Assembly (NCBI GenBank): GCA_963698325.1
Contig: CAVOQJ010000010.1
Location: 318,245 to 382,244 of the forward strand
Reading direction: 5' to 3'
From: Blastocatellia bacterium
Lineage (GTDB): Bacteria > Acidobacteriota > Blastocatellia > Pyrinomonadales > Pyrinomonadaceae
DNA length: 64,000 bases
The position numbers and the translations under genes are program-made. Positions 54,268-63,530 of the stretch are shown piece after piece (position 1 is the stretch's first letter; each line of letters starts with the position of its first letter). The notes under the pieces were generated by a model, which saw only the letters and a list, made by a program, of their open reading frames with translations, was not told where the DNA came from and ran no database searches.

Positions 54268-54630
54268 TTGTTGAACTACATTTTATACGCACTATTTATT
54301 CTGGCGTGCCTGGTCCTGGTTGTCGTTGTGCTGTTACAGCCGGGCAAATCGGGCGCCGGCGATCTGTTTTCCAGCAGCGTTTCGAGTACAGCGTTTGGCC
54401 CACGCGGTACCGCAAGCATTCTATCGAAGATCACCATCGGAGCCGCGGCGGCTTTCATGCTCATCGCATTGATGCTATCGCTGCCGGCGGTAACGGGGAG
54501 TCACTCGGTGTTGCAATCAAATGAACCGGAAGCGACGCCCACACCGCAGGCATCGCCGGCGGCCAGCCTAACTCCCGCAGCGTCACCGGTGACTTCACCG
54601 GCTGCTTCACCAGCCGCATCGCCGAAGTAA
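54268..54630 (+). CDS. secG: Preprotein translocase subunit SecG with an Ala/Pro/Ser-rich tail
   Basis: [29 protein letters not shown], and a second TM ITIGAAAAFMLIALMLSL. Classic gap-pgk-tpiA-secG order. TTG start. Confidence 0.85.
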   Translation: MLNYILYALFILACLVLVVVVLLQPGKSGAGDLFSSSVSSTAFGPRGTASILSKITIGAAAAFMLIALMLSLPAVTGSHSVLQSNEPEATPTPQASPAASLTPAASPVTSPAASPAASPK

Positions 54631-54804
54631 GCCGCAGAGGTAGACCGAGGTAATCCGCGAAGGTGTGCCGAGGTAATAGGCAGTGGTAGACCGAAGCAAG
54701 TCCCAGAGGTAGAGTCGAGCAAACCGCAATCTCACGCGCGGAATTTACGATGCGCGCTGGGGACCTCGCAAAGTTTGCGATACCATTGTTATCTGATAAT
54801 TTGA

Positions 54805-54886
54805 GCCGAAGTGGCGGAACTGGCAGACGCGCACGTTTGAGGGGCGTGTGAGGCAACTCGTGGGGGTTCGAGTCCCCCCTTCGGCA
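54805..54886 (+). tRNA. tRNA-Leu (anticodon GAG), long variable arm, CCA not encoded
   Basis: Acceptor GCCGAAG/CTTCGGC, anticodon arm CACGT-TTGAGGG-GCGTG, variable arm TGAGGCAACTCGT, T arm GGGGG-TTCGAGT-CCCCC, discriminator A. Confidence 0.85.
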
Positions 54887-55262
54887 CAATACCTGCTTCT
54901 TTTTCTTCGAAAAACCTCATATTTTTCGCTTAGTGTCCAATTAGTGCCCGCACTTTCCGCACCGTGCGCACTCCGTTGTACCTTAGTTGTCCATCACGAC
55001 GGCCGCCACCTATCTAAGTCTGCCTAGCGCAAAAACTCGTTTCTGTAATTCGAGTCCCCCTGTGGGAATCAAGGGGCACTCACATGGACGCACAGCACGC
55101 CAAAGCGATAGAACGGGTGCGCATTGCCGGAATCGACTGGCTAGTCGTGGGACAGACACTTTTGAGAAGATGTGAGTTGTGCCTAGTGTACGTTTGTTCT
55201 CACGAATTGTGCGGCAATTGTGCGGGCGGGCGCCCGATCTTCAGATTGACACGGTAGGGGTC

Positions 55263-55290
55263 TGGGGTTCAAATCCCCACATGGCTACCA
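55263..55290 (+). other. 3' fragment of a second, unrelated tRNA (T arm + acceptor 3' strand + CCA)
   Basis: TGGGG-TTCAAAT-CCCCA-CATGGCT-A-CCA. No complementary AGCCATG 5' acceptor strand within 100 nt upstream. Confidence 0.65.
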
Positions 55291-55477
55291 ACAATAAGTT
55301 ACGCTGTACAACCCCGTTCTCCGTTGCTCCAAAACGCTCCAGTTTCTGACCGTTTATTTCCACGCCAAATGACTTGTCGATGCCGAAAGCGACGCGGAGC
55401 CGAGGCGGCAAAGTCCTTCAGCAATTCAACCTGACATCCTGGGCACAGAACTGCTCGCAACAGGAGGTGGTTGTGAC

Positions 55478-56791
55478 TCACAAGTCCAGTATGAAGTCCT
55501 TGCGAATGTTCTTTTGCCCTTTCAGATCCTGGGTGGTAAAGAAATCTGTTTCCTGGGTTAGAGCCTCAACCAGTGGACGCCTGGGGACTTCTGTCTTCGG
55601 CGGACTTCCATGCTTACCGGACATCGTAGAAACCACCGCTTGTAACCGTCCGGGTTTCTTTTTGGGGGATCGATTCTTAAACAATTTCCAGAGCGACTTA
55701 GGAGTTGCGTTCAAGCTGCCGTGATGTCCGACCTTGTAAAGATTTACTCCTGCAAGCGCTTTGCGAATGGCTGGTTTGCTGAGAGCGTAGGACCAATTCT
55801 CGATCTGTGCATCACCGGGAAACAAAAGCTTCTTTCCGCCCACCTCGAATAGCAGAATCAGACTGGTGTTATTCATCACCTTGTCCAGGGCCCGCATGAT
55901 GCCCAGTAATTGTGTGCCGCGGATTAATTTCAACCGGTCAATAAACCAGCGGGTGGATGGGGGCATGCGCGATGCCGGATAGGTGCCGGCGCCTTTGAAC
56001 AATTTACCCTCCGGGCTCGCAGCGAAATTGCCCGCCAACGCCTGAAGGTGCCAGAACTCATCCTCATCCTTGCTCTTCATCTTACGAATACTTTCCGACT
56101 GCTTGAGTGTGGGTGGTCCCAGTACCGTGATCTTGACTCCGGGGAGTACGCTCGCAAGGCCGGAGTTGGACCCGAAATTAGCATAGACGGCTTTCTTAGC
56201 TTTGCCGCTTTTATTCTTTCCAGAGCCCATCGCCATCAGGTTCTTTACTGCCGACAGATTGCTCAGATTGTCTTCGCCCAGAAAGCTCAGTTGCTCGTGT
56301 AGTTGCTGGCCGATCATCGACTTGCGGCGTTCCACTTCGCTCAGAACTGCCGCCGAAATAGCGTGCATGTCGCGGAGTGCGGTGCCGAAGGCGAGTTCCT
56401 TGGAGCCCGAAGCTTTCACCGTGCCGGTGACTGGATTGGCCCTCGGATGCTCGGTCCAGGGCTGGACCACCACGTCAGGATCGCAACTCGCGATAATGCT
56501 TCCGGGAGCGTTCTTGCCACCGGTCGTCGTGAAGCCGCTGACATGGTCCTTATGGCGGTGGGTCGCCACAACTGCATGAAGCTTGCCACCACATTGCTCG
56601 CGAATGTCGGTGGCCACCCGGTTCATGAGTTTCGGTCCCATACTTTTTTTCGTGCCGGTACTGCCAAAGTCGATCAGTAGGTGGCGATCAAACTTTTTAT
56701 AGTGAAAGGTCAACAGAAAGCAGTCACCAAAGCCTACCTGATAAGTCCGCAAGGTCATTTTGGTTGGTTTGTTGCTGGCCATAATTACCAC
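55478..56791 (-). CDS. MBL-fold metallo-hydrolase (cytoplasmic)
   Basis: GFGDCFLLTF, LIDFGS, VVATHRHKDHVSG (HxHxDH), LLFPGDAQIENW, YKVGHHGSLNA. No signal peptide. Confidence 0.85.
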   Translation of the reverse strand: MVIMASNKPTKMTLRTYQVGFGDCFLLTFHYKKFDRHLLIDFGSTGTKKSMGPKLMNRVATDIREQCGGKLHAVVATHRHKDHVSGFTTTGGKNAPGSIIASCDPDVVVQPWTEHPRANPVTGTVKASGSKELAFGTALRDMHAISAAVLSEVERRKSMIGQQLHEQLSFLGEDNLSNLSAVKNLMAMGSGKNKSGKAKKAVYANFGSNSGLASVLPGVKITVLGPPTLKQSESIRKMKSKDEDEFWHLQALAGNFAASPEGKLFKGAGTYPASRMPPSTRWFIDRLKLIRGTQLLGIMRALDKVMNNTSLILLFEVGGKKLLFPGDAQIENWSYALSKPAIRKALAGVNLYKVGHHGSLNATPKSLWKLFKNRSPKKKPGRLQAVVSTMSGKHGSPPKTEVPRRPLVEALTQETDFFTTQDLKGQKNIRKDFILDL

Positions 56792-58503
56792 TCCTCCGGG
56801 GCTTCGTTCGGAATATGCTCAATCATGCGGTGCAGATGCAGCGACGAAAAACGAAAGGCGGCTGGTCCATTCTTGATAAAGCCGTAGTCCCAGAGGTACT
56901 TCAGCCGTTGCGTTTGCCGCTCCTCGTCGCTAACCCGGTTGCGAACATGAAACTTCAGTCGGCCATACTCGTCGAATATCAGCGCGCCGCCGCCGAAGAG
57001 CGTCACCAGCTGATCCTTAGGCATGTCCGGCGGCACCTTAATCTTTAGAGATTTCAGCTCCGAGGCTGCAAGGTTAATGATCTGAATGTACTCGGCAACT
57101 GTTTCGCGCAGCGCGAAGCCGTCCGGACCTATGCGCAAGCAAGGTCGCACCGAGAGCACGCGGCTGTAGGCATCGTCGTTTAATCGGAGTACCCGGCGAT
57201 TTTCCCAAATGAAGCGAAACACCTCATCCGGGTCGCGCTGCATGAACTCGAAGTGGGTACGCTCATAATTCAAATCTGCTTCGGGAGGATCCCAAACACC
57301 GGGTTCGCTTGGTATGCCCTTTGACGCCGGATCAATGCCATAGCTGACAAAGCTTTTTCTCAAGATTTCGCGGAACTCATATTTAGAATCATCGGGATTA
57401 ATTTCGCGATCAGACGTCAGCACGGCGCTAAGGTAATCGCAAAACTCCAGGTTCACTGGCGGCGTGTAATCCAGGGCGCGAATTGCCATCGTCAATAGAT
57501 AGTCAGCAACGCTCGCTCCTTCCTCCACCACCCGTCTCCGATCAAGGTAGCCTTTTTCGATTTCGCCGAGTCCCTTCAGCCGCTTTACCCAGACGCTTAA
57601 GAAAGCATTCATCATTGCCGCGACCAGTATTTCTCCGCGACGATGGGGCTCGACGTATTCGGGATCAGACATGTATTTGCGGGACGGCAGCAGTTTCGCC
57701 GAGCGACGCAGCGCGTCTCCCCGAACCAATGCCATTTCCTGACCCATTTCTTCGGCCAGCCCGAGGAGGGCGGACAGTCGTAGTTTTTCGGCGGTCAGTT
57801 CGCTGCGAGCAAGGAGTTGGTCTTTGCGTTTCGCCGAACGAAGGTCGATCACCGTTTCCACTACTCCCGGCACAGCAAAAACCGAAAGCAAGGCCACGAT
57901 GTCGGCGAAGCCTTCGTGAAATGCTGCTTGTTCAGGTGAGGAAGGATCGGTGTAACGCTCTCGAAGACCGTCGAGCAATGCGTGAGTTGTCTCGTGAGCA
58001 ACTACGTCATGCGAAAGAGAGGAGTACACCATTCGACCACTGGTCGCGGGAAAATATCCAAACAACAAGGATTGATCCCGTTCGGAGTAGAAGGCATTGG
58101 CATCAGCGAAAGCATGTGGTGCTACCTTGATTTGATGTCCATAAAACCCCCAACGCACTCGTCTACCGAGAGCGAATTCAAAACGCGCCAGGGTTTTCAT
58201 AACAATGGCGTAGACATTCTGGGCATGGAAATTTGGATCATTCAGCAGCTCGCTGTCAGAAGCTGCCGCAAAAGGATCCCCGTCGCCAGCCGTGTTGAGG
58301 CGTGGATATTCGATCGGTTTGTACAGCGTTAGGGTTGAAGAGTCGTAGTCTACGACGTGCACGCGGTAGCCGCGCGGACCGACTCCGATCTCTTCAGCCG
58401 GCACATCGATACTGGCCCGGAGAATCTTGTTCTTGACTCGCACGCTCGGATCTTGCGCGATGATAGTTAGCTTGCGAGTGCGCGGTTGTTGTAGTGAAGC
58501 CAT
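56785..58503 (-). CDS. Thermolysin-like (M4-type gluzincin) metallopeptidase lacking signal peptide and propeptide
   Basis: DANAFYSERDQSLLFGY...HDVVAHETTHALLDG...AAFHEGFADIVA parallels thermolysin NNAFWNG..MVYGDG...VVAHELTHAVTD...AINEAISDIFG. 7-nt overlap with the MBL gene. Confidence 0.75.
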   Translation of the reverse strand: MASLQQPRTRKLTIIAQDPSVRVKNKILRASIDVPAEEIGVGPRGYRVHVVDYDSSTLTLYKPIEYPRLNTAGDGDPFAAASDSELLNDPNFHAQNVYAIVMKTLARFEFALGRRVRWGFYGHQIKVAPHAFADANAFYSERDQSLLFGYFPATSGRMVYSSLSHDVVAHETTHALLDGLRERYTDPSSPEQAAFHEGFADIVALLSVFAVPGVVETVIDLRSAKRKDQLLARSELTAEKLRLSALLGLAEEMGQEMALVRGDALRRSAKLLPSRKYMSDPEYVEPHRRGEILVAAMMNAFLSVWVKRLKGLGEIEKGYLDRRRVVEEGASVADYLLTMAIRALDYTPPVNLEFCDYLSAVLTSDREINPDDSKYEFREILRKSFVSYGIDPASKGIPSEPGVWDPPEADLNYERTHFEFMQRDPDEVFRFIWENRRVLRLNDDAYSRVLSVRPCLRIGPDGFALRETVAEYIQIINLAASELKSLKIKVPPDMPKDQLVTLFGGGALIFDEYGRLKFHVRNRVSDEERQTQRLKYLWDYGFIKNGPAAFRFSSLHLHRMIEHIPNEAPEEW

Positions 58504-60452
58504 AGCTTATTAATCCTCCGGTAGTACGTAAGGTGAAGCACCAGGTTGGCTTGCTTGGTGTAAGAGTAGATTGCCTTGCCCGGTGTCCTGAAATCAGCGA
58601 TGTTTGAAACGAGCCTTCCTCGTAAGTTTATGTTGGTCTCCAGAAGGATTTGGACAGGTCCCTCGTCGCCGGTTGGCGCGCTAACTAGAATGACCTCCGG
58701 ATCGACTTGCATTATGGTGGCCTCCTTGCCGCCAAACAAGACTCGAACAACGTGGCGAAAATTGATTCCGCGCAGCGTGACGACCGCGGTTTTAGTCCCA
58801 AGCCCCTCCGGCTTGTTGGTCGTCGCGTTTACCACACTGCTTATCGAGGGGGCGGCAGGTATGCCGATGTCGAAAATCCGCGTTACGCCGTTAGCGCCGG
58901 CCACCGTCAAGGGCACTGGATCGCGTCGCGCCGCGATGCGGATGCGGTACCGATGATTTCCGAGGCTGGTGGGGCCGTCAATAATCGAACCGTCACGCGC
59001 CTCAATCCGCACGCCCGGCGCAACGTCCTGCCCAGAAACGGTAACGATGAGATCGATAACTGGCAGCCGGCCACCTGCGGCTGGATCGTAGCGAATAATT
59101 TCGTAGTTGGATATGACGGTTTGTTGGAAACTGACATAGCCTTCCTGCACCGCCTGTCTGGAGGTATTCCGATATCGGATTTTGACCGCACGGCCTTCAG
59201 CGGGTCGACGAAACTTCAATCTATACAGGCCGGGGCTCAGATGGGTCGCTTCCTCGCCGTTCGCTGTATCCAGAGGTTGGGGCCCAATAAAGAATCTGGC
59301 GCCACGACGCAAGCCGGTGCCTTGAAGATGGACCGTCACAAACTGCGGATCGGAGTCGTCGACGACTTCAATACTGGCCACGGCGAACGTGTCGGCAAAC
59401 ATTGGCTCAACTTCACTGATTTCGGAGAGCGACATGTTCCGGTAGTAAAAATTGATGTCCTCAAGCTTGAAGAAGTTAATGGCCGAGGTTTTCTCTGGCG
59501 TCACCAGAGTGATCAAGGGAGTTCCGACGTACTCCTGTGGCATCTTGAAGCTGAGAATAAGTTGTTGCGGATTCAGGTATTCAAACTCCCCGGCTGGATC
59601 CACCGCCGCGCCCGCAAACGTGTTCGCGATCGAGCTTTCATTCTTCGCGATTGACACCGCCCGCTTCAGGGGCACGCCATTAACCAGAATTCCCGTGAGC
59701 GGAGAGAAGTATTTCCCGTCGATTATTACGGTCGCCTGCTTGCCTTTCTCCACCGGCGTGTAGGTAACGCGATCTACCCAAAAACCTTCGGTGCGTTCAT
59801 TGGGGACCAGCATTCTATGTGTTCCCGCGCCGTAGCCTTCGTTAACCTGGGCCACCTCTTTCACCGTGGTATCGCCAGGCGAAACGTCACGCTTGTAGAC
59901 TTTGGCCGCAACCTTAAGTTCGAGTGCCAGAGCGTCGCTGGGAATGGCCAGAATTGCGTAGGTTGTGCGTACGCCGGGCGCAAGCCGCTTGGTTCCGCGG
60001 AGTGGCCCAAAAGTCCAACCGAAGTTACTCATTCCTTTTCCGTATGCCGAAGCATAAACTTCTTGTTGAATGAATTGCTCGTAAAGCGATCGTTGGCGTT
60101 GAAAGCTTACTGTTCCTCCCAGCCCAAACATCGTCAGAAATCTGGCAGTGAGCGCAAGACCCTTCTGCGTTCCGTGTTGGTCGTTGACGTTCAATGCGCT
60201 CTGCCGCGGAATGATATCGATTACCCGAAACTTAGTTGGGTCTGCCGTGCCCCAGCACTCATCTTTCAGTGTCTCCGCGATAACCGGATCTTCGTCAAGG
60301 ATTTTGAGCCCACCGTCATCGTTCTCTCTCAGCATGTCCAGAGTGATCGGCTCGGCCTGAGTTTCCTCGTCTTTTTTGGAGGTGACATAGATCTTGTTGT
60401 CATAAACCTCAGCACTCAGCTGTTTTCTTTTCAAGATCGAATCCAGCACCAC
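58467..60452 (-). CDS. C-terminal part of a large secreted protein: second half of an STN/N0-like domain, beta-rich region, IPT/TIG-like domains
   Basis: Begins VLDSILKRKQLSAEVYDNKIYVTS, which is the second half of an N0/STN fold. IPT-like segments: VDRVTYTPVEKGKQATVIIDGKYFSPLTGILVNGVPL and PSISSVVNAT...AVVTLRGINFRHVVRVLFGGKEATIMQVDPEVILVSAP. Confidence 0.7.
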   Translation of the reverse strand: MVLDSILKRKQLSAEVYDNKIYVTSKKDEETQAEPITLDMLRENDDGGLKILDEDPVIAETLKDECWGTADPTKFRVIDIIPRQSALNVNDQHGTQKGLALTARFLTMFGLGGTVSFQRQRSLYEQFIQQEVYASAYGKGMSNFGWTFGPLRGTKRLAPGVRTTYAILAIPSDALALELKVAAKVYKRDVSPGDTTVKEVAQVNEGYGAGTHRMLVPNERTEGFWVDRVTYTPVEKGKQATVIIDGKYFSPLTGILVNGVPLKRAVSIAKNESSIANTFAGAAVDPAGEFEYLNPQQLILSFKMPQEYVGTPLITLVTPEKTSAINFFKLEDINFYYRNMSLSEISEVEPMFADTFAVASIEVVDDSDPQFVTVHLQGTGLRRGARFFIGPQPLDTANGEEATHLSPGLYRLKFRRPAEGRAVKIRYRNTSRQAVQEGYVSFQQTVISNYEIIRYDPAAGGRLPVIDLIVTVSGQDVAPGVRIEARDGSIIDGPTSLGNHRYRIRIAARRDPVPLTVAGANGVTRIFDIGIPAAPSISSVVNATTNKPEGLGTKTAVVTLRGINFRHVVRVLFGGKEATIMQVDPEVILVSAPTGDEGPVQILLETNINLRGRLVSNIADFRTPGKAIYSYTKQANLVLHLTYYRRINKLWLHYNNRALAS

Positions 60453-60455
60453 ATT

Positions 60456-61553
60456 CTACGGTTTGTCACTGACCCTGGCTGTGATTTGGATCGAGCCTAC
60501 GGCCCTGTCAACGACGAATACTGGCCCGTATTGTTCATGAATGTAATCTAAAACGTCGCGCAGCGAGGCGTTGACCACGTTCAGATTGATCGGTTCTCCA
60601 CGAAAACCGCTTTGCCCGTAATGGGCACCTGTTGTTTCCGGCGCGGTAGCCTTTGGGCAACCACTGAAACTTGAACCAAAAAAGCGCGCAACTTGCCACT
60701 CAAGTCTCACCACATAGTCATCGTCTGCCTTGGGCACTGAGTAGAGCGACATTGGCATTTCGAGGAAGACGAGCCGTTGGTTCGGTCCAACCTCGTCGCG
60801 CAAGAGCGTTAGCTGCTTGGCAATCACTTCGTACTGCATCTGAATATAGTTTTCCAGTGTGGTCGACGCATTGAGCTGAGGTGTCGCCACGGTGGTATTC
60901 AGCTTATCGAACATAGTCTTGACGTTGTCCGGTAAAGTTCCCGGAGTAGCGGTAGGTATGCTGCCCTTGTACGCGGTTGGCGCTCCAGGGGCCGTAACCG
61001 CTGCACGCAACAAATCCATCTCCGCCTTGAGAGCGTCGCGTTCGGCCGTCTTCGCCGCAAGTTGGGCCACCACCAGTTTTCGTTGCTCGGCCAATTCCGG
61101 CTTATCGGCGGGCAAGGCTGCTAGCTGTATGGTTAGACTCGACGTTTCACGCACTGCATCAGTGTATGGCGCTGTCAGTGCGTCAAGCCTGCTCTGCGAC
61201 GCGTTAAATCGACTTAAATCTGCCTCGAATCGCTGGTTCAAGATACTGTTCTGTCCGCCGGCCACCGTGTCGAGACCAACATCCGCTCCCACCAATGTGC
61301 GCAACATGCTCATACGAGTGGCGGTGGCAGAACTGGGATTCAGTTCGGATGGGAGGGGGACCTTAACGCCCAGGTCGCGACTCCGTTCTCGCATGTTGGC
61401 AAGCAGGTAGTGAGCCTGGCCGAGCGACCAGATATTCGGTTGGCCTACTTCGATGGTGATTTGGGATTTGTTCTGGCCTCTTACGTTAAGCGAGCAGATA
61501 GGAAGTAATAGACTGAGACAAGTAACGGCCGCTAACTGAGCGCGAAAAGACAT
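60456..61553 (-). CDS. N-terminal part of the same secreted protein: signal peptide, helical/coiled region, first half of the STN/N0-like domain
   Basis: MSFRAQLAAVTCLSLLLPICSLNVRGQ signal, then a Gln/Ala/Leu-rich helical region. Ends INLNVVNASLRDVLDYIHEQYGPVFVVDRAVGSIQITARVSDKP, followed by TAG. Confidence 0.7.
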   Translation of the reverse strand: MSFRAQLAAVTCLSLLLPICSLNVRGQNKSQITIEVGQPNIWSLGQAHYLLANMRERSRDLGVKVPLPSELNPSSATATRMSMLRTLVGADVGLDTVAGGQNSILNQRFEADLSRFNASQSRLDALTAPYTDAVRETSSLTIQLAALPADKPELAEQRKLVVAQLAAKTAERDALKAEMDLLRAAVTAPGAPTAYKGSIPTATPGTLPDNVKTMFDKLNTTVATPQLNASTTLENYIQMQYEVIAKQLTLLRDEVGPNQRLVFLEMPMSLYSVPKADDDYVVRLEWQVARFFGSSFSGCPKATAPETTGAHYGQSGFRGEPINLNVVNASLRDVLDYIHEQYGPVFVVDRAVGSIQITARVSDKP

Positions 61554-62240
61554 GACTTTGTTCTCCAGGGAGATTTTTTTCTGATTTCTACGACGTGGAT
61601 TCAGGCTGGGCAGAGAACCTAGCGGCCTGAACATCAGTTGTTCTAGCTCTTTTCAACTTAGAGCGGGTCAGGAACATTGAGAGCGCCAAACGTTGAGTCC
61701 TGCGTCAGGTGCCCTTATCGCAACAGTTGGGAAACAGGCTTAGAGGCCAGCCGAATCAAGAGCGAGATGACAGTCCTATACTCTTGTTTGCATCGTCAGT
61801 CAAGAATTACATAAGTCAGAATTACATAAGTCTCGCGGCGAACTTTTTCATCCGTTCTTAGCCCAACCTGCTACTGCCAACTAACAATGCGATTGAATAC
61901 ACCACCATTTGCGATTCGAGCTCGTCTACCCTCAATGACATTAAGGCACAAGACATTTCGCAAGACTTTTGGTTCGGGTTTTCACATTCTAGTATGCGAA
62001 TAGGTCGCGCAATTGGTCGGGTGTGCCTTGACACGGCATTCCTCCGCGGGTCAAATTCGCCCGCACCTAACCGATGGGCTAAATAACTTAGGTGAGGAAT
62101 TCATGTGGAACACTACCTCCGTGGATTAGGAGGCCGTTTGCAAGATCAGAGAATGTTTGTTTCGATCACAAGGAACGAGGGAGGAGCAAGAGCTGAAGCC
62201 CCTGCGGGGCGAGGGTGCGCTGGAGAAAGATGCACGCCGC

Positions 62241-62640
62241 TCAGGCAGTCTTTCGCCCGGCCAGACTTTCCAGCGAACGCCCGGCTTGTTCCCTTGATCG
62301 CTTCGTTGCGTGTGAGTAGTAGAGAACGAATGCCTTGTCGGACCAGCCCATCCATTCCTGTACAGTCTTTTGACTAACGTTGCTTTCCAAGAGATGAGTG
62401 GTGACTGTATGCCTGGCATCATGGAGCACCAAGCCGTTTGGATTGCTGCGGTCCGTATGGCACGCCGGCGCGGCCGCAGGCTTCTCTGAGAATGCGGTAA
62501 AACTTTGGCGTGATGTAGCCACTACGTGAGAAGACCAAATCAGGCGTACCGGATGCGGGTCTTCCGGGTCCGAAGCGTCCTGGCAGAATTGTCGCCTCGC
62601 ATTTCCACTCGCCCAGAAGGAAGCCAAGCTTTTGGAATTG
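62241..62640 (-). pseudogene. Tyrosine recombinase (phage-type integrase) C-terminal remnant, frameshifted
   Basis: GLVLHDARHTVTTHLLESNVSQKTVQEWMGWSDKAFVLYYSH carries the R-H-x-x-R...Y box region. The preceding FYRILREACGRAGVPYG is readable only in another frame. No N-terminal half is present. Confidence 0.7.
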
Positions 62641-62649
62641 CCGGATTCT

Positions 62650-62865
62650 GATTGGGTACTTGTGTTTGCTCAGCCGTCATGATTCCCACCCCTTCGAGCT
62701 CCGAAATGTTTCCGAAGGGGTCGGTAAAAACCACCGTTCCCGGCTTGCCGGCCTTCGGTGGTTCCTGCCGGATGATCTCGATTCCATTTCGGTTCATTGC
62801 CTCGATGAGCTTCCTTCATATTGTCGGTCTCGAACACAATTGTGTAGATGCGCATCCTTTCTTCT
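62650..62865 (-). pseudogene. Glyoxalase/VOC-family gene fragment, frameshifted
   Basis: MRIYTIVFETDNMKEA then, in another frame, LIEAMNRNGIEIIRQEPPKAGKPGTVVFTDPFGNISELEG. This is about half a VOC domain. Confidence 0.5.
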
Positions 62866-63530
62866 CGCGTGACGGTCGCAGAATCATTTTTCAATCGCCT
62901 CGCGCCAATGGCCAGGACACAAACATCTACGTCATGAACTCTGATGGTTCGAACGTCGTACAGCTTACGAATCTGAAAGGCTTTGCCGGCGTCCCGGTAT
63001 ATTCACCGGACGAAAGACTGATCGTGCTTCAATGGCGCGAGACCAGCAATTTTCGCGACGGCAAAAAGTGGCGCGTCTGCGTGATGAATAGCGATGCCAG
63101 CAGCCTTCGCATAATCACTTCGGGAGACGCAAACGATCAGGTGCCGAATTGGTCTCACGACGGGAAGCGCCTGCTTTTCTATTCGGATCGCACCGGCAAG
63201 AATCAGGTTTACACAATGATAGCCGACGGCAGTGATGTGAGACGAGTTACAAATACAGAATCAAATGATCAGGCTGCAACCTGGTCGCCGGACAATAAGA
63301 AAATCGGGTTTATTTCGGATCGCGACGGAAACAGCGAGGTTTACTCAATGGACGCTAATGGCCGGAATGTGCGTCGGTTGACTAACACTCGTGCGACGGA
63401 ACGCGTTCCCATCTGGTCGCCGGACGGTAAGACAATCGCCTTCTCTTCAGACGGTGATGGGCCGAGCCAGATTTATTTGATGGATGCCGACGGGTCACGC
63501 TTGCTATGTCTGACAGCGGCGATGAAATAG
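62652..63530 (+). CDS. TolB-like PD40/WD40-like beta-propeller repeat protein, probably N-terminally truncated
   Basis: Repeats FSRDGRRIIFQS...NIYVMNSDGSNVVQLTN, WSHDGKRLLFYSDRTGKNQVYTMIADGSDVRRVTN, WSPDNKKIGFISDRDGNSEVYSMDANGRNVRRLTN, WSPDGKTIAFSSDGDGPSQIYLMDADGS. The first ~70 codons overlap the VOC fragment and look non-coding. Confidence 0.65.
   Translation: MGTCVCSAVMIPTPSSSEMFPKGSVKTTVPGLPAFGGSCRMISIPFRFIASMSFLHIVGLEHNCVDAHPFFSRDGRRIIFQSPRANGQDTNIYVMNSDGSNVVQLTNLKGFAGVPVYSPDERLIVLQWRETSNFRDGKKWRVCVMNSDASSLRIITSGDANDQVPNWSHDGKRLLFYSDRTGKNQVYTMIADGSDVRRVTNTESNDQAATWSPDNKKIGFISDRDGNSEVYSMDANGRNVRRLTNTRATERVPIWSPDGKTIAFSSDGDGPSQIYLMDADGSRLLCLTAAMK

Follow-up and report, generated by a model that had tools for sequence, protein, structure and literature searches.

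Genes at the Locus

The 64,000-nucleotide (nt) stretch analysed here, referred to as the window, was taken from contig CAVOQJ010000010.1 (forward strand, positions 318,245 to 382,244) of the Blastocatellia bacterium assembly GCA_963698325.1. The element in question is a block of three genes on the minus strand, named A, B and C, which lies beside a tRNA-Leu gene and whose second and third members are probably a two-gene defence cassette. In the direction of transcription, gene A (58467..61553) encodes an exported protein of about 1000 amino acids (aa), gene B (56785..58503) a 572-aa thermolysin-like gluzincin and gene C (55478..56782) a 434-aa hydrolase of the metallo-β-lactamase (MBL) fold, the two latter proteins being leaderless.

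Four open reading frames (ORFs) were detected on the minus strand of this region, at 61553(61634)..60456, 60452..58467, 58503..56785 and 56791..55478. An earlier note, made from the sequence of the window, had likened their packing to that of a translationally coupled operon. The coordinates stood but the four ORFs represent three genes, as the first two ORFs lie in one frame and constitute a single gene A, parted by a TAG plus one codon (...SDKP*NVVLDS...). What had been described as a 3-nt intergenic gap at 60453-60455 is the one codon that follows the in-frame TAG (60458-60456). This premature amber stop (60456-60458, minus strand) falls inside the STN-like domain of A, at a position occupied by TGG (Trp) in the orthologs, among them the intact single-ORF genes for P0390 and P0518 (1000 aa; 97% identical). 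The truncated 392-aa product was also found in an independent Logan assembly (P0519), so the stop is present in the reads. An assembly error and recoding were both considered and rejected, since the independent assembly repeats the stop and no sign of recoding was seen.

The window was compared with the orthologous locus L051, in which A, B and C lie beside the same tRNA-Leu/secG/tpiA/pgk/gap neighbourhood. The ratio of nonsynonymous to synonymous substitution rates (dN/dS) against L051 was 0.066 for A, with the stretch downstream of the stop included, 0.064 for B and 0.074 for C. By these values, the stop is very recent. Gene A has thus been inactivated recently in this genome by a nonsense mutation.

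In the product of A, a signal peptide and a long coiled coil are combined with an STN-like domain and about six Ig/IPT domains. The architecture expected in the earlier note for an exported STN/IPT protein of ~1050 aa was recovered, at a length of ~1000 aa, but its intactness was not, because of the TAG within A. A TIG domain was called by Pfam at the C-terminus of the second ORF. STN was not called by Pfam on the split ORFs of the window; the only Pfam call came from the homolog P0404 (residues 341-384), exactly at the gathering score, and this homolog also has TIG. The structural model of P0390, with a predicted local distance difference test (pLDDT) score of 78, showed all of these parts, the STN-like domain being a small α/β domain and the Ig/IPT domains about six sandwiches, and a Foldseek search with it returned tandem Ig/IPT proteins only. 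No secretin or TonB-dependent barrel domain was found in A with Pfam, in the model or with Foldseek. In this A differs from secretins and TonB-dependent receptors, the remainder of the protein consisting of the coiled coil and the Ig/IPT repeats. The A family comprised 582 hits and all source-given taxon names were acidobacteriotal.

The 3' end of A extends 29 codons past the stop of its ortholog and runs into B. In L051, where a TGA takes the place of the CAA of the window, A and B are separated by a 47-nt gap. The 37-nt A/B overlap noticed earlier (58467-58503) is consequently real but a property of this allele and not a general feature. No terminator-like site was detected on the minus strand between the genes, and a sigma-70 promoter scan was uninformative (one match versus four expected). 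In the non-coding stretch upstream of A, a 15-nt unit (AGAATTACATAAGTC) is exactly duplicated in tandem at 61803-61832.

Gene B Encodes a Thermolysin-like Peptidase

The motif HETTH...HEGFAD was confirmed in B at 57901-57996 and no signal peptide was found, in agreement with the leaderless M4-like zinc peptidase proposed before. In an alignment of 66 homologs, H170, E171, H174, H196, E197 and D201 were invariant. The Pfam M4 model (PF01447) matched B at 19.5 bits, under its gathering score of 22.4, and a few members of the B family exceeded this threshold (e.g., P0264, 31 bits).

The AlphaFold model of B (pLDDT 85, predicted template modelling score 0.89) was composed of an N-terminal β domain, the catalytic domain and a C-terminal NTF2-like domain. 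The best Foldseek match was thermolysin (4ow3) with a probability of 1.0, although the E value was only 1e-3 and the template modelling score, normalised to thermolysin, 0.50; the next matches were the collagenase ColH and lugdulysin. The C-terminal domain resembled the NTF2-like protein 3ub1, and nothing significant was found in a Foldseek comparison of the model with viral structures. Common to B and thermolysin (M4) are the HExxH motif and the downstream Glu zinc ligand in (N/H)E(A/G)xxD, besides the top structural match. B differs in being cytoplasmic, without signal peptide or propeptide, in its extra N-terminal β and C-terminal NTF2-like domains, in an overall sequence identity of ~13% and in its M4 score below gathering.

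More than 7600 close homologs of B were retrieved, the family covers 3469 clusters at 50% identity, and the names given at source were all 'hypothetical protein' except for one domain-based label. PADLOC, NCBIfam and PHROGs gave no match for B, and a PDB sequence search with it gave nothing useful. An exact look-up of the protein encoded in the window found no match and orthologous loci were used instead. Seven homologs (P0190, P0196, P0199, P0209, P0213, P0218 and P0219) carry an N-terminal extension of ~550 aa before the B-type domain, for which no Pfam or NCBIfam match was found.

Gene C Encodes an MBL-Fold Protein

The HxHxDH motif attributed to C was confirmed as HRHKDH at 56543-56560, and the protein is leaderless as had been claimed. 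Two starts come into question for this gene, a GTG at 56791 and an ATG at 56782. The latter is the probable one, because it lies 8 nt after an AGGAG and fits both the N-termini of the homologs and the recorded 434-aa product. The 7-nt B/C overlap described earlier (56785-56791) holds for the GTG start only; with the ATG start, B and C are separated by a 2-nt gap.

PADLOC models matching C were LmuA (1e-21), RTasMBL (1.5e-9), Avs1a (3e-9) and also PDC-M48B. In NCBIfam, the Avs1a, 6A-MBL and ComEC models matched, every one under its cut-off, and the Pfam MBL match was likewise below the gathering score. The closest solved structure to the C-family profile was the ComEC MBL domain 9ic4 (E 4e-5), and a PDB sequence search with C gave weak CbpE and ComEC matches only. 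With the MBL nuclease domain of ComEC/Rec2, C shares the GDxxxL...HxHxDH...NNxS...HHGS motifs; it differs in being soluble, in lacking the competence channel and OB domains and in carrying ~200 aa of inserts.

An alignment of 32 homologs showed that the metal-binding motifs of C are complete, with H75, H77, D79, H80, D324, H353 and H354 invariant, and it also revealed two hypervariable inserts at approximately residues 113-160 and 245-275. C is predicted to be a latent Zn-dependent DNase effector.

B and C Form a Conserved Two-Gene Cassette

In 45 of 46 species-representative genome loci, C was located directly after B on the same strand. The lone exception (L050) is a match to a short piece of B only (residues 256-333). 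The hosts of B–C belong to at least seven phyla (Acidobacteriota, Planctomycetota, Gemmatimonadota, Chloroflexota, Bacteroidota, Alphaproteobacteria and Deltaproteobacteria) and include Phycisphaerae, Isosphaeraceae, Gemmatimonadaceae, Flavobacteriales, Bradyrhizobium, Sphingomonas and a deltaproteobacterium, with a patchy taxonomic distribution. The pair was also detected on 49 plasmids; 22 of these are conjugative, and conjugative plasmids of rhizobia and agrobacteria carry it. The pairwise distances of B and of C co-varied (Spearman 0.73, permutation p 0.001).

Clustering of all ORFs neighbouring B–C revealed no third conserved gene. A Pfam survey of 155 neighbours showed no recurrent partner and only a weak enrichment of conflict domains.

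Within 10 kb of B–C, gene A was absent from all 45 genome loci (24 acidobacteriotal), and the A loci were mostly without B–C. The trio that had been taken as the unit is therefore not one; the conserved unit, and probably also the functional one, is the B–C cassette, to which A is dispensable. The idea of a tightly linked, self-contained accessory module with defence affinities was borne out for the pair.

Fusions and Defence Contexts of the Cassette

Several relatives of B and C were found in fused forms or next to defence genes. In P0142, the peptidase and the MBL are joined in one protein (a Rosetta-stone fusion). At the locus encoding it (L103, 729-9816), peptidase genes of the M10, M64 and C70 types precede P0142, and an IS66 fragment and an AAA_21/SMC-like ATPase gene follow.

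L102 encodes a fusion of an nSTAND1 NTPase with a B-type peptidase, the next gene being that of a C-type MBL (40% identical); the Avs systems made up of a STAND–trypsin protein and an MBL have the same layout.

Plasmid pCMU01 of Methylorubrum extorquens CM4 (L100) carries a gene for a fusion of an S8 protease with a B-type domain, and an MBL gene comes next. The fusion protein (WP_162091632.1, record positions 293913-297011) is annotated as 'S8 family serine peptidase'; its B-type domain is complete, with HETTH/HEAFAD intact, and is 31% identical to B, while the neighbouring MBL (WP_012606276.1) shares with C the motif blocks at both termini. The flanks of L100 contain two SIR2 genes and genes for an AAA ATPase with an exonuclease, a metallophosphoesterase and a DUF2235 protein. 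On a Rhizobium phaseoli plasmid (L101), B–C adjoins genes for a CBASS cyclase, a WYL protein and an AAA ATPase and a SAV_2336 STAND gene.

About 9 kb upstream of B–C in a Pyrinomonadaceae locus (L001, 1-1164), there are genes for a STAND-like ATPase (AAA_16/NPHP3_N) and for an EAD5-trypsin protein.

A Protease-Activated MBL Nuclease Module as the Probable Role

Two 2025 preprints (Evans et al., PMC12642450; Huang et al., 10.1101/2025.09.03.673762) showed MBLs adjoining proteases in Avs, Hachiman and other systems to be autoinhibited dsDNA nucleases. Cleavage by the protease at two linkers activates these zymogens, and the MBL clades pair with trypsin-like, caspase-like or S8 proteases. It has recently become clear that protease-licensed MBL nucleases commonly serve as death effectors in bacterial immunity. 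The view that no characterised system resembles the trio has thus been overtaken by protease-adjacent MBL zymogens, although these were characterised with serine or cysteine proteases and not with a zincin. A metalloprotease partner is not mentioned in the searchable text of these sources and none was found in the literature search.

Taking the above data together, the B–C pair is probably a stand-alone metalloprotease variant of such protease-activated MBL nuclease modules, acting in defence of the abortive-infection type. With the published modules (Avs1/Avs2/Avs4-trypsin-MBL, Hachiman-trypsin-MBL and the caspase and S8 clades) B–C shares the adjacency and covariation of protease and MBL, and C shares the intact metal sites and the two variable inserts. 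In VcMBL, the linkers are cleaved at residues 133/134 and 232/233 (PMC12642450), and the inserts of C lie at comparable positions. Relatives of B are fused to STAND sensors, and modules of both kinds are located in defence islands and on plasmids. One difference concerns the protease, B being a thermolysin-like zinc gluzincin and not a trypsin-like, caspase-like or S8 enzyme. Relative to the S8-associated MBL clade ('Clade 3' in PMC12642450), the B of the window lacks any S8 domain. The S8-fused pair of pCMU01 probably belongs to Clade 3. Since this fusion protein holds a complete B-type domain, some published 'S8-MBL' modules may contain a second, overlooked zincin protease.

In the proposed mechanism, C would be an MBL nuclease of the ComEC/Avs1a/LmuA-MBL type, kept latent by its two variable inserts (~113-160 and 245-275), and B an active thermolysin-like zinc endopeptidase. 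Once triggered, B would cut C within both inserts, and the cleaved C would act as a Zn-dependent DNase which degrades DNA and halts the infected cell or the invading element. There being no fused sensor, the trigger would be sensed by the N-terminal β or the C-terminal NTF2-like domain of B, or by some factor whose gene lies elsewhere. The cassette is carried by a ~7-kb accessory block inserted beside tRNA-Leu. The cleavage of C by B, the DNase activity and the anti-phage role are all put forward by analogy with the published modules.

A number of observations weigh against this assignment. B is absent from the PADLOC hits, and the version in the window has no sensor, neither in B nor elsewhere in the block. 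C scored 52.4 bits against the Avs1a model (NF041809), the cut-off of which is 420, and was also far below the 6A-MBL cut-off, its similarity to the published effectors being only block-wise. The neighbours of B–C at ~40 genome loci were mostly ordinary genes with scattered patatin, CHAT and bPH domains. An identity of ~55% across phyla is unusually high for a defence system, and the correlation of B and C distances is expected of any linked genes that are transferred together.

The block could also not be assigned to two named systems. For AVAST type 1, C remained under 420 bits and no STAND gene was found in the block. For Lamassu (LmuA-MBL + LmuB), C matches the LmuA model but the block, consisting of A, B and C only, is without the SMC-like LmuB partner, none of the three matching the SMC or LmuB model.

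If correct, the assignment would make thermolysin-like zinc proteases a fourth catalytic class among the partners of MBL nucleases, for which serine and cysteine proteases had been described. The B–C family mostly has the form of a minimal two-gene unit without a recognisable sensor and is present in many phyla. How a stand-alone protease senses infection would then become the question, and the pair would offer a compact system for biochemistry.

Relation of Gene A to the Cassette and Other Readings of the Pair

The three families were found to co-occur outside this genome, as the earlier note had asked, at several acidobacterial loci, so the link with A is not refuted by that comparison. B–C pairs follow A in the same orientation and at a spacing of 13-180 nt in the window and L051, at L055/L085, at L105/106 and at L107/108. 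At L107/L108 (10404-17315, Pyrinomonadaceae GCA_036387475.1), two tandem peptidase–MBL pairs of different subfamilies lie directly after A, one of a divergent 679+524-aa type and the other of a 589-aa type with its MBL. At L082/83, a distant B–C pair precedes A. Other A genes are followed by a defence-type MBL alone (L053 and L073), by a DrmC-like phospholipase D (PLD) gene (L067) or by a gene for a patatin-like protein (L092), and at about nine of 21 A loci unrelated convergent genes come next. The A-linked B genes occupied at least four separate places of the B tree. Because they are scattered in this manner, the juxtaposition of A and B must have arisen repeatedly.

Such a distribution could be explained in two ways. 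In the favoured one, the site of A would be a hotspot of accessory or defence genes. Alternatively, A, B and C might be one system, an Acidobacteria-specific conflict system in which A would be the constant envelope-exposed part (sensor, anchor or receptor-like) and the cytoplasmic effectors would be swappable. The succession of A and closely spaced B–C at several loci would suit this explanation, as would the other A genes followed by an MBL alone or by PLD/DrmC-like or patatin-like enzymes, the co-orientation of all the juxtapositions in spite of their scatter over the B tree and the lack of a terminator-like site between A and B. It would also turn the odd mix of compartments into a real design feature instead of a coincidence of neighbours. 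However, B–C occurs without A at the 45 genome loci and in phyla without the A family, and unrelated convergent genes follow A at almost half of its loci. Moreover, the exported A and the cytoplasmic B and C reside in different compartments, with no known transmembrane link between them. The two tandem pairs after one A at L107 resemble accumulation at a hotspot, and in the window A has a stop codon whereas B and C are intact. A single A–B–C system is therefore considered unlikely. The related suggestion of a surface-structure biogenesis system found no support for B–C, which has no export signals and is present in phyla without A.

Further gene types were noticed beside A. A separate MBL family of 490-550 aa adjoins A at L053:5491-7137, L073:6355-7938 and L099:1171-2646, with no peptidase; its members have an N-terminal extension of ~90 aa and PADLOC matches to LmuA, RTasMBL and Avs1a. 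A patatin-like protein (~800-1050 aa) and a small outer membrane protein of the β-barrel type (220-300 aa) recur next to A, upstream of it at L003/L085, L055 and L073 and downstream at L092.

For the B–C pair itself, an addiction or stabilisation (toxin–antitoxin-like) module or a tool of competition between mobile elements was also considered, in which C would be the nuclease toxin and the protease would exert control. The 49 plasmids, 22 of them conjugative, are in line with such a role, and so are the integrative block beside a tRNA gene with its integrase remnant and a patchy distribution shaped by horizontal transfer. Yet both proteins are large enzymes and no labile small antitoxin is present, most chromosomal copies are not beside recognisable mobility genes, and the STAND- and S8-fused versions in CBASS/SIR2 islands point to the sensing of invaders. 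This role is regarded as improbable for the pair, more so than the single A–B–C system.

The least probable explanation, to which very little weight is given, is that two ordinary hydrolases of metabolism or housekeeping (e.g., of peptide and nucleic-acid turnover or natural-product maturation) happen to be encoded side by side as B and C: the very high sequence conservation under strong purifying selection, the many metabolic neighbour genes and the 'hypothetical protein' names in databases would allow it, but no conserved precursor-peptide, transporter or biosynthetic gene lies nearby, the pair is without export signals and is kept across phyla amid variable surroundings, and the STAND and S8 fusions, the defence-island contexts and the best MBL homologies speak otherwise. 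Roles of B–C in a secretion system, in competence or in the production of ribosomally synthesised and post-translationally modified peptides (RiPPs) were also rejected, there being no conserved partner genes.

The Mobile Block beside tRNA-Leu

The accessory block is bordered, on the conserved secG-tpiA-pgk-gap side, by a tRNA-Leu(GAG) gene at 54805..54887 on the plus strand (ARAGORN; 48.6 bits with the Rfam tRNA model); a Rfam scan of 54600-63000 found nothing besides this tRNA. The segment with A, B and C (55381..62039) showed 93.7% identity to L051 over 6.7 kb, versus 68-76% for the housekeeping genes flanking it (74-76% for tpiA/pgk/gap). Judged by these identities, the A–B–C block is mobile and recently transferred.

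A remnant of a tyrosine recombinase gene was identified at 62244-62627 on the minus strand (Pfam PF00589, E 1.8e-9). Only the C-terminal part is left, matching positions 125-170 of the 172-position Phage_integrase model, and a portion of the remnant (62227-62387) is kept in L051 with 84% identity. The degraded integrative island with intact cargo that the earlier note had placed by tRNA-Leu was thus supported as a mobile block with an integrase fragment, but not as regards the intactness of A.

No attachment (att) repeat was detected, either as direct repeats across 54700-63200 or in searches with both tRNA-end sequences allowing up to three mismatches, which gave no second copy. An orphan fragment resembling a tRNA 3' end (GGGGTTCAAATCCCCACATGGCTACCA), with a T-arm, an acceptor end and a terminal CCA, lies at 55253-55290 on the plus strand and occurs as a single copy in the window. 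It is part of a 230-bp segment (55151-55380), between tRNA-Leu and C, that is missing from L051, and may be the remnant of an older integration or attachment site. Twelve nucleotides (TTCGAGTCCCCC) of the tRNA-Leu T-arm (54867-54878) were also seen to recur ~160 nt downstream of that gene, at 55049-55060 on the plus strand, which might reflect either a degraded att repeat or mere chance.

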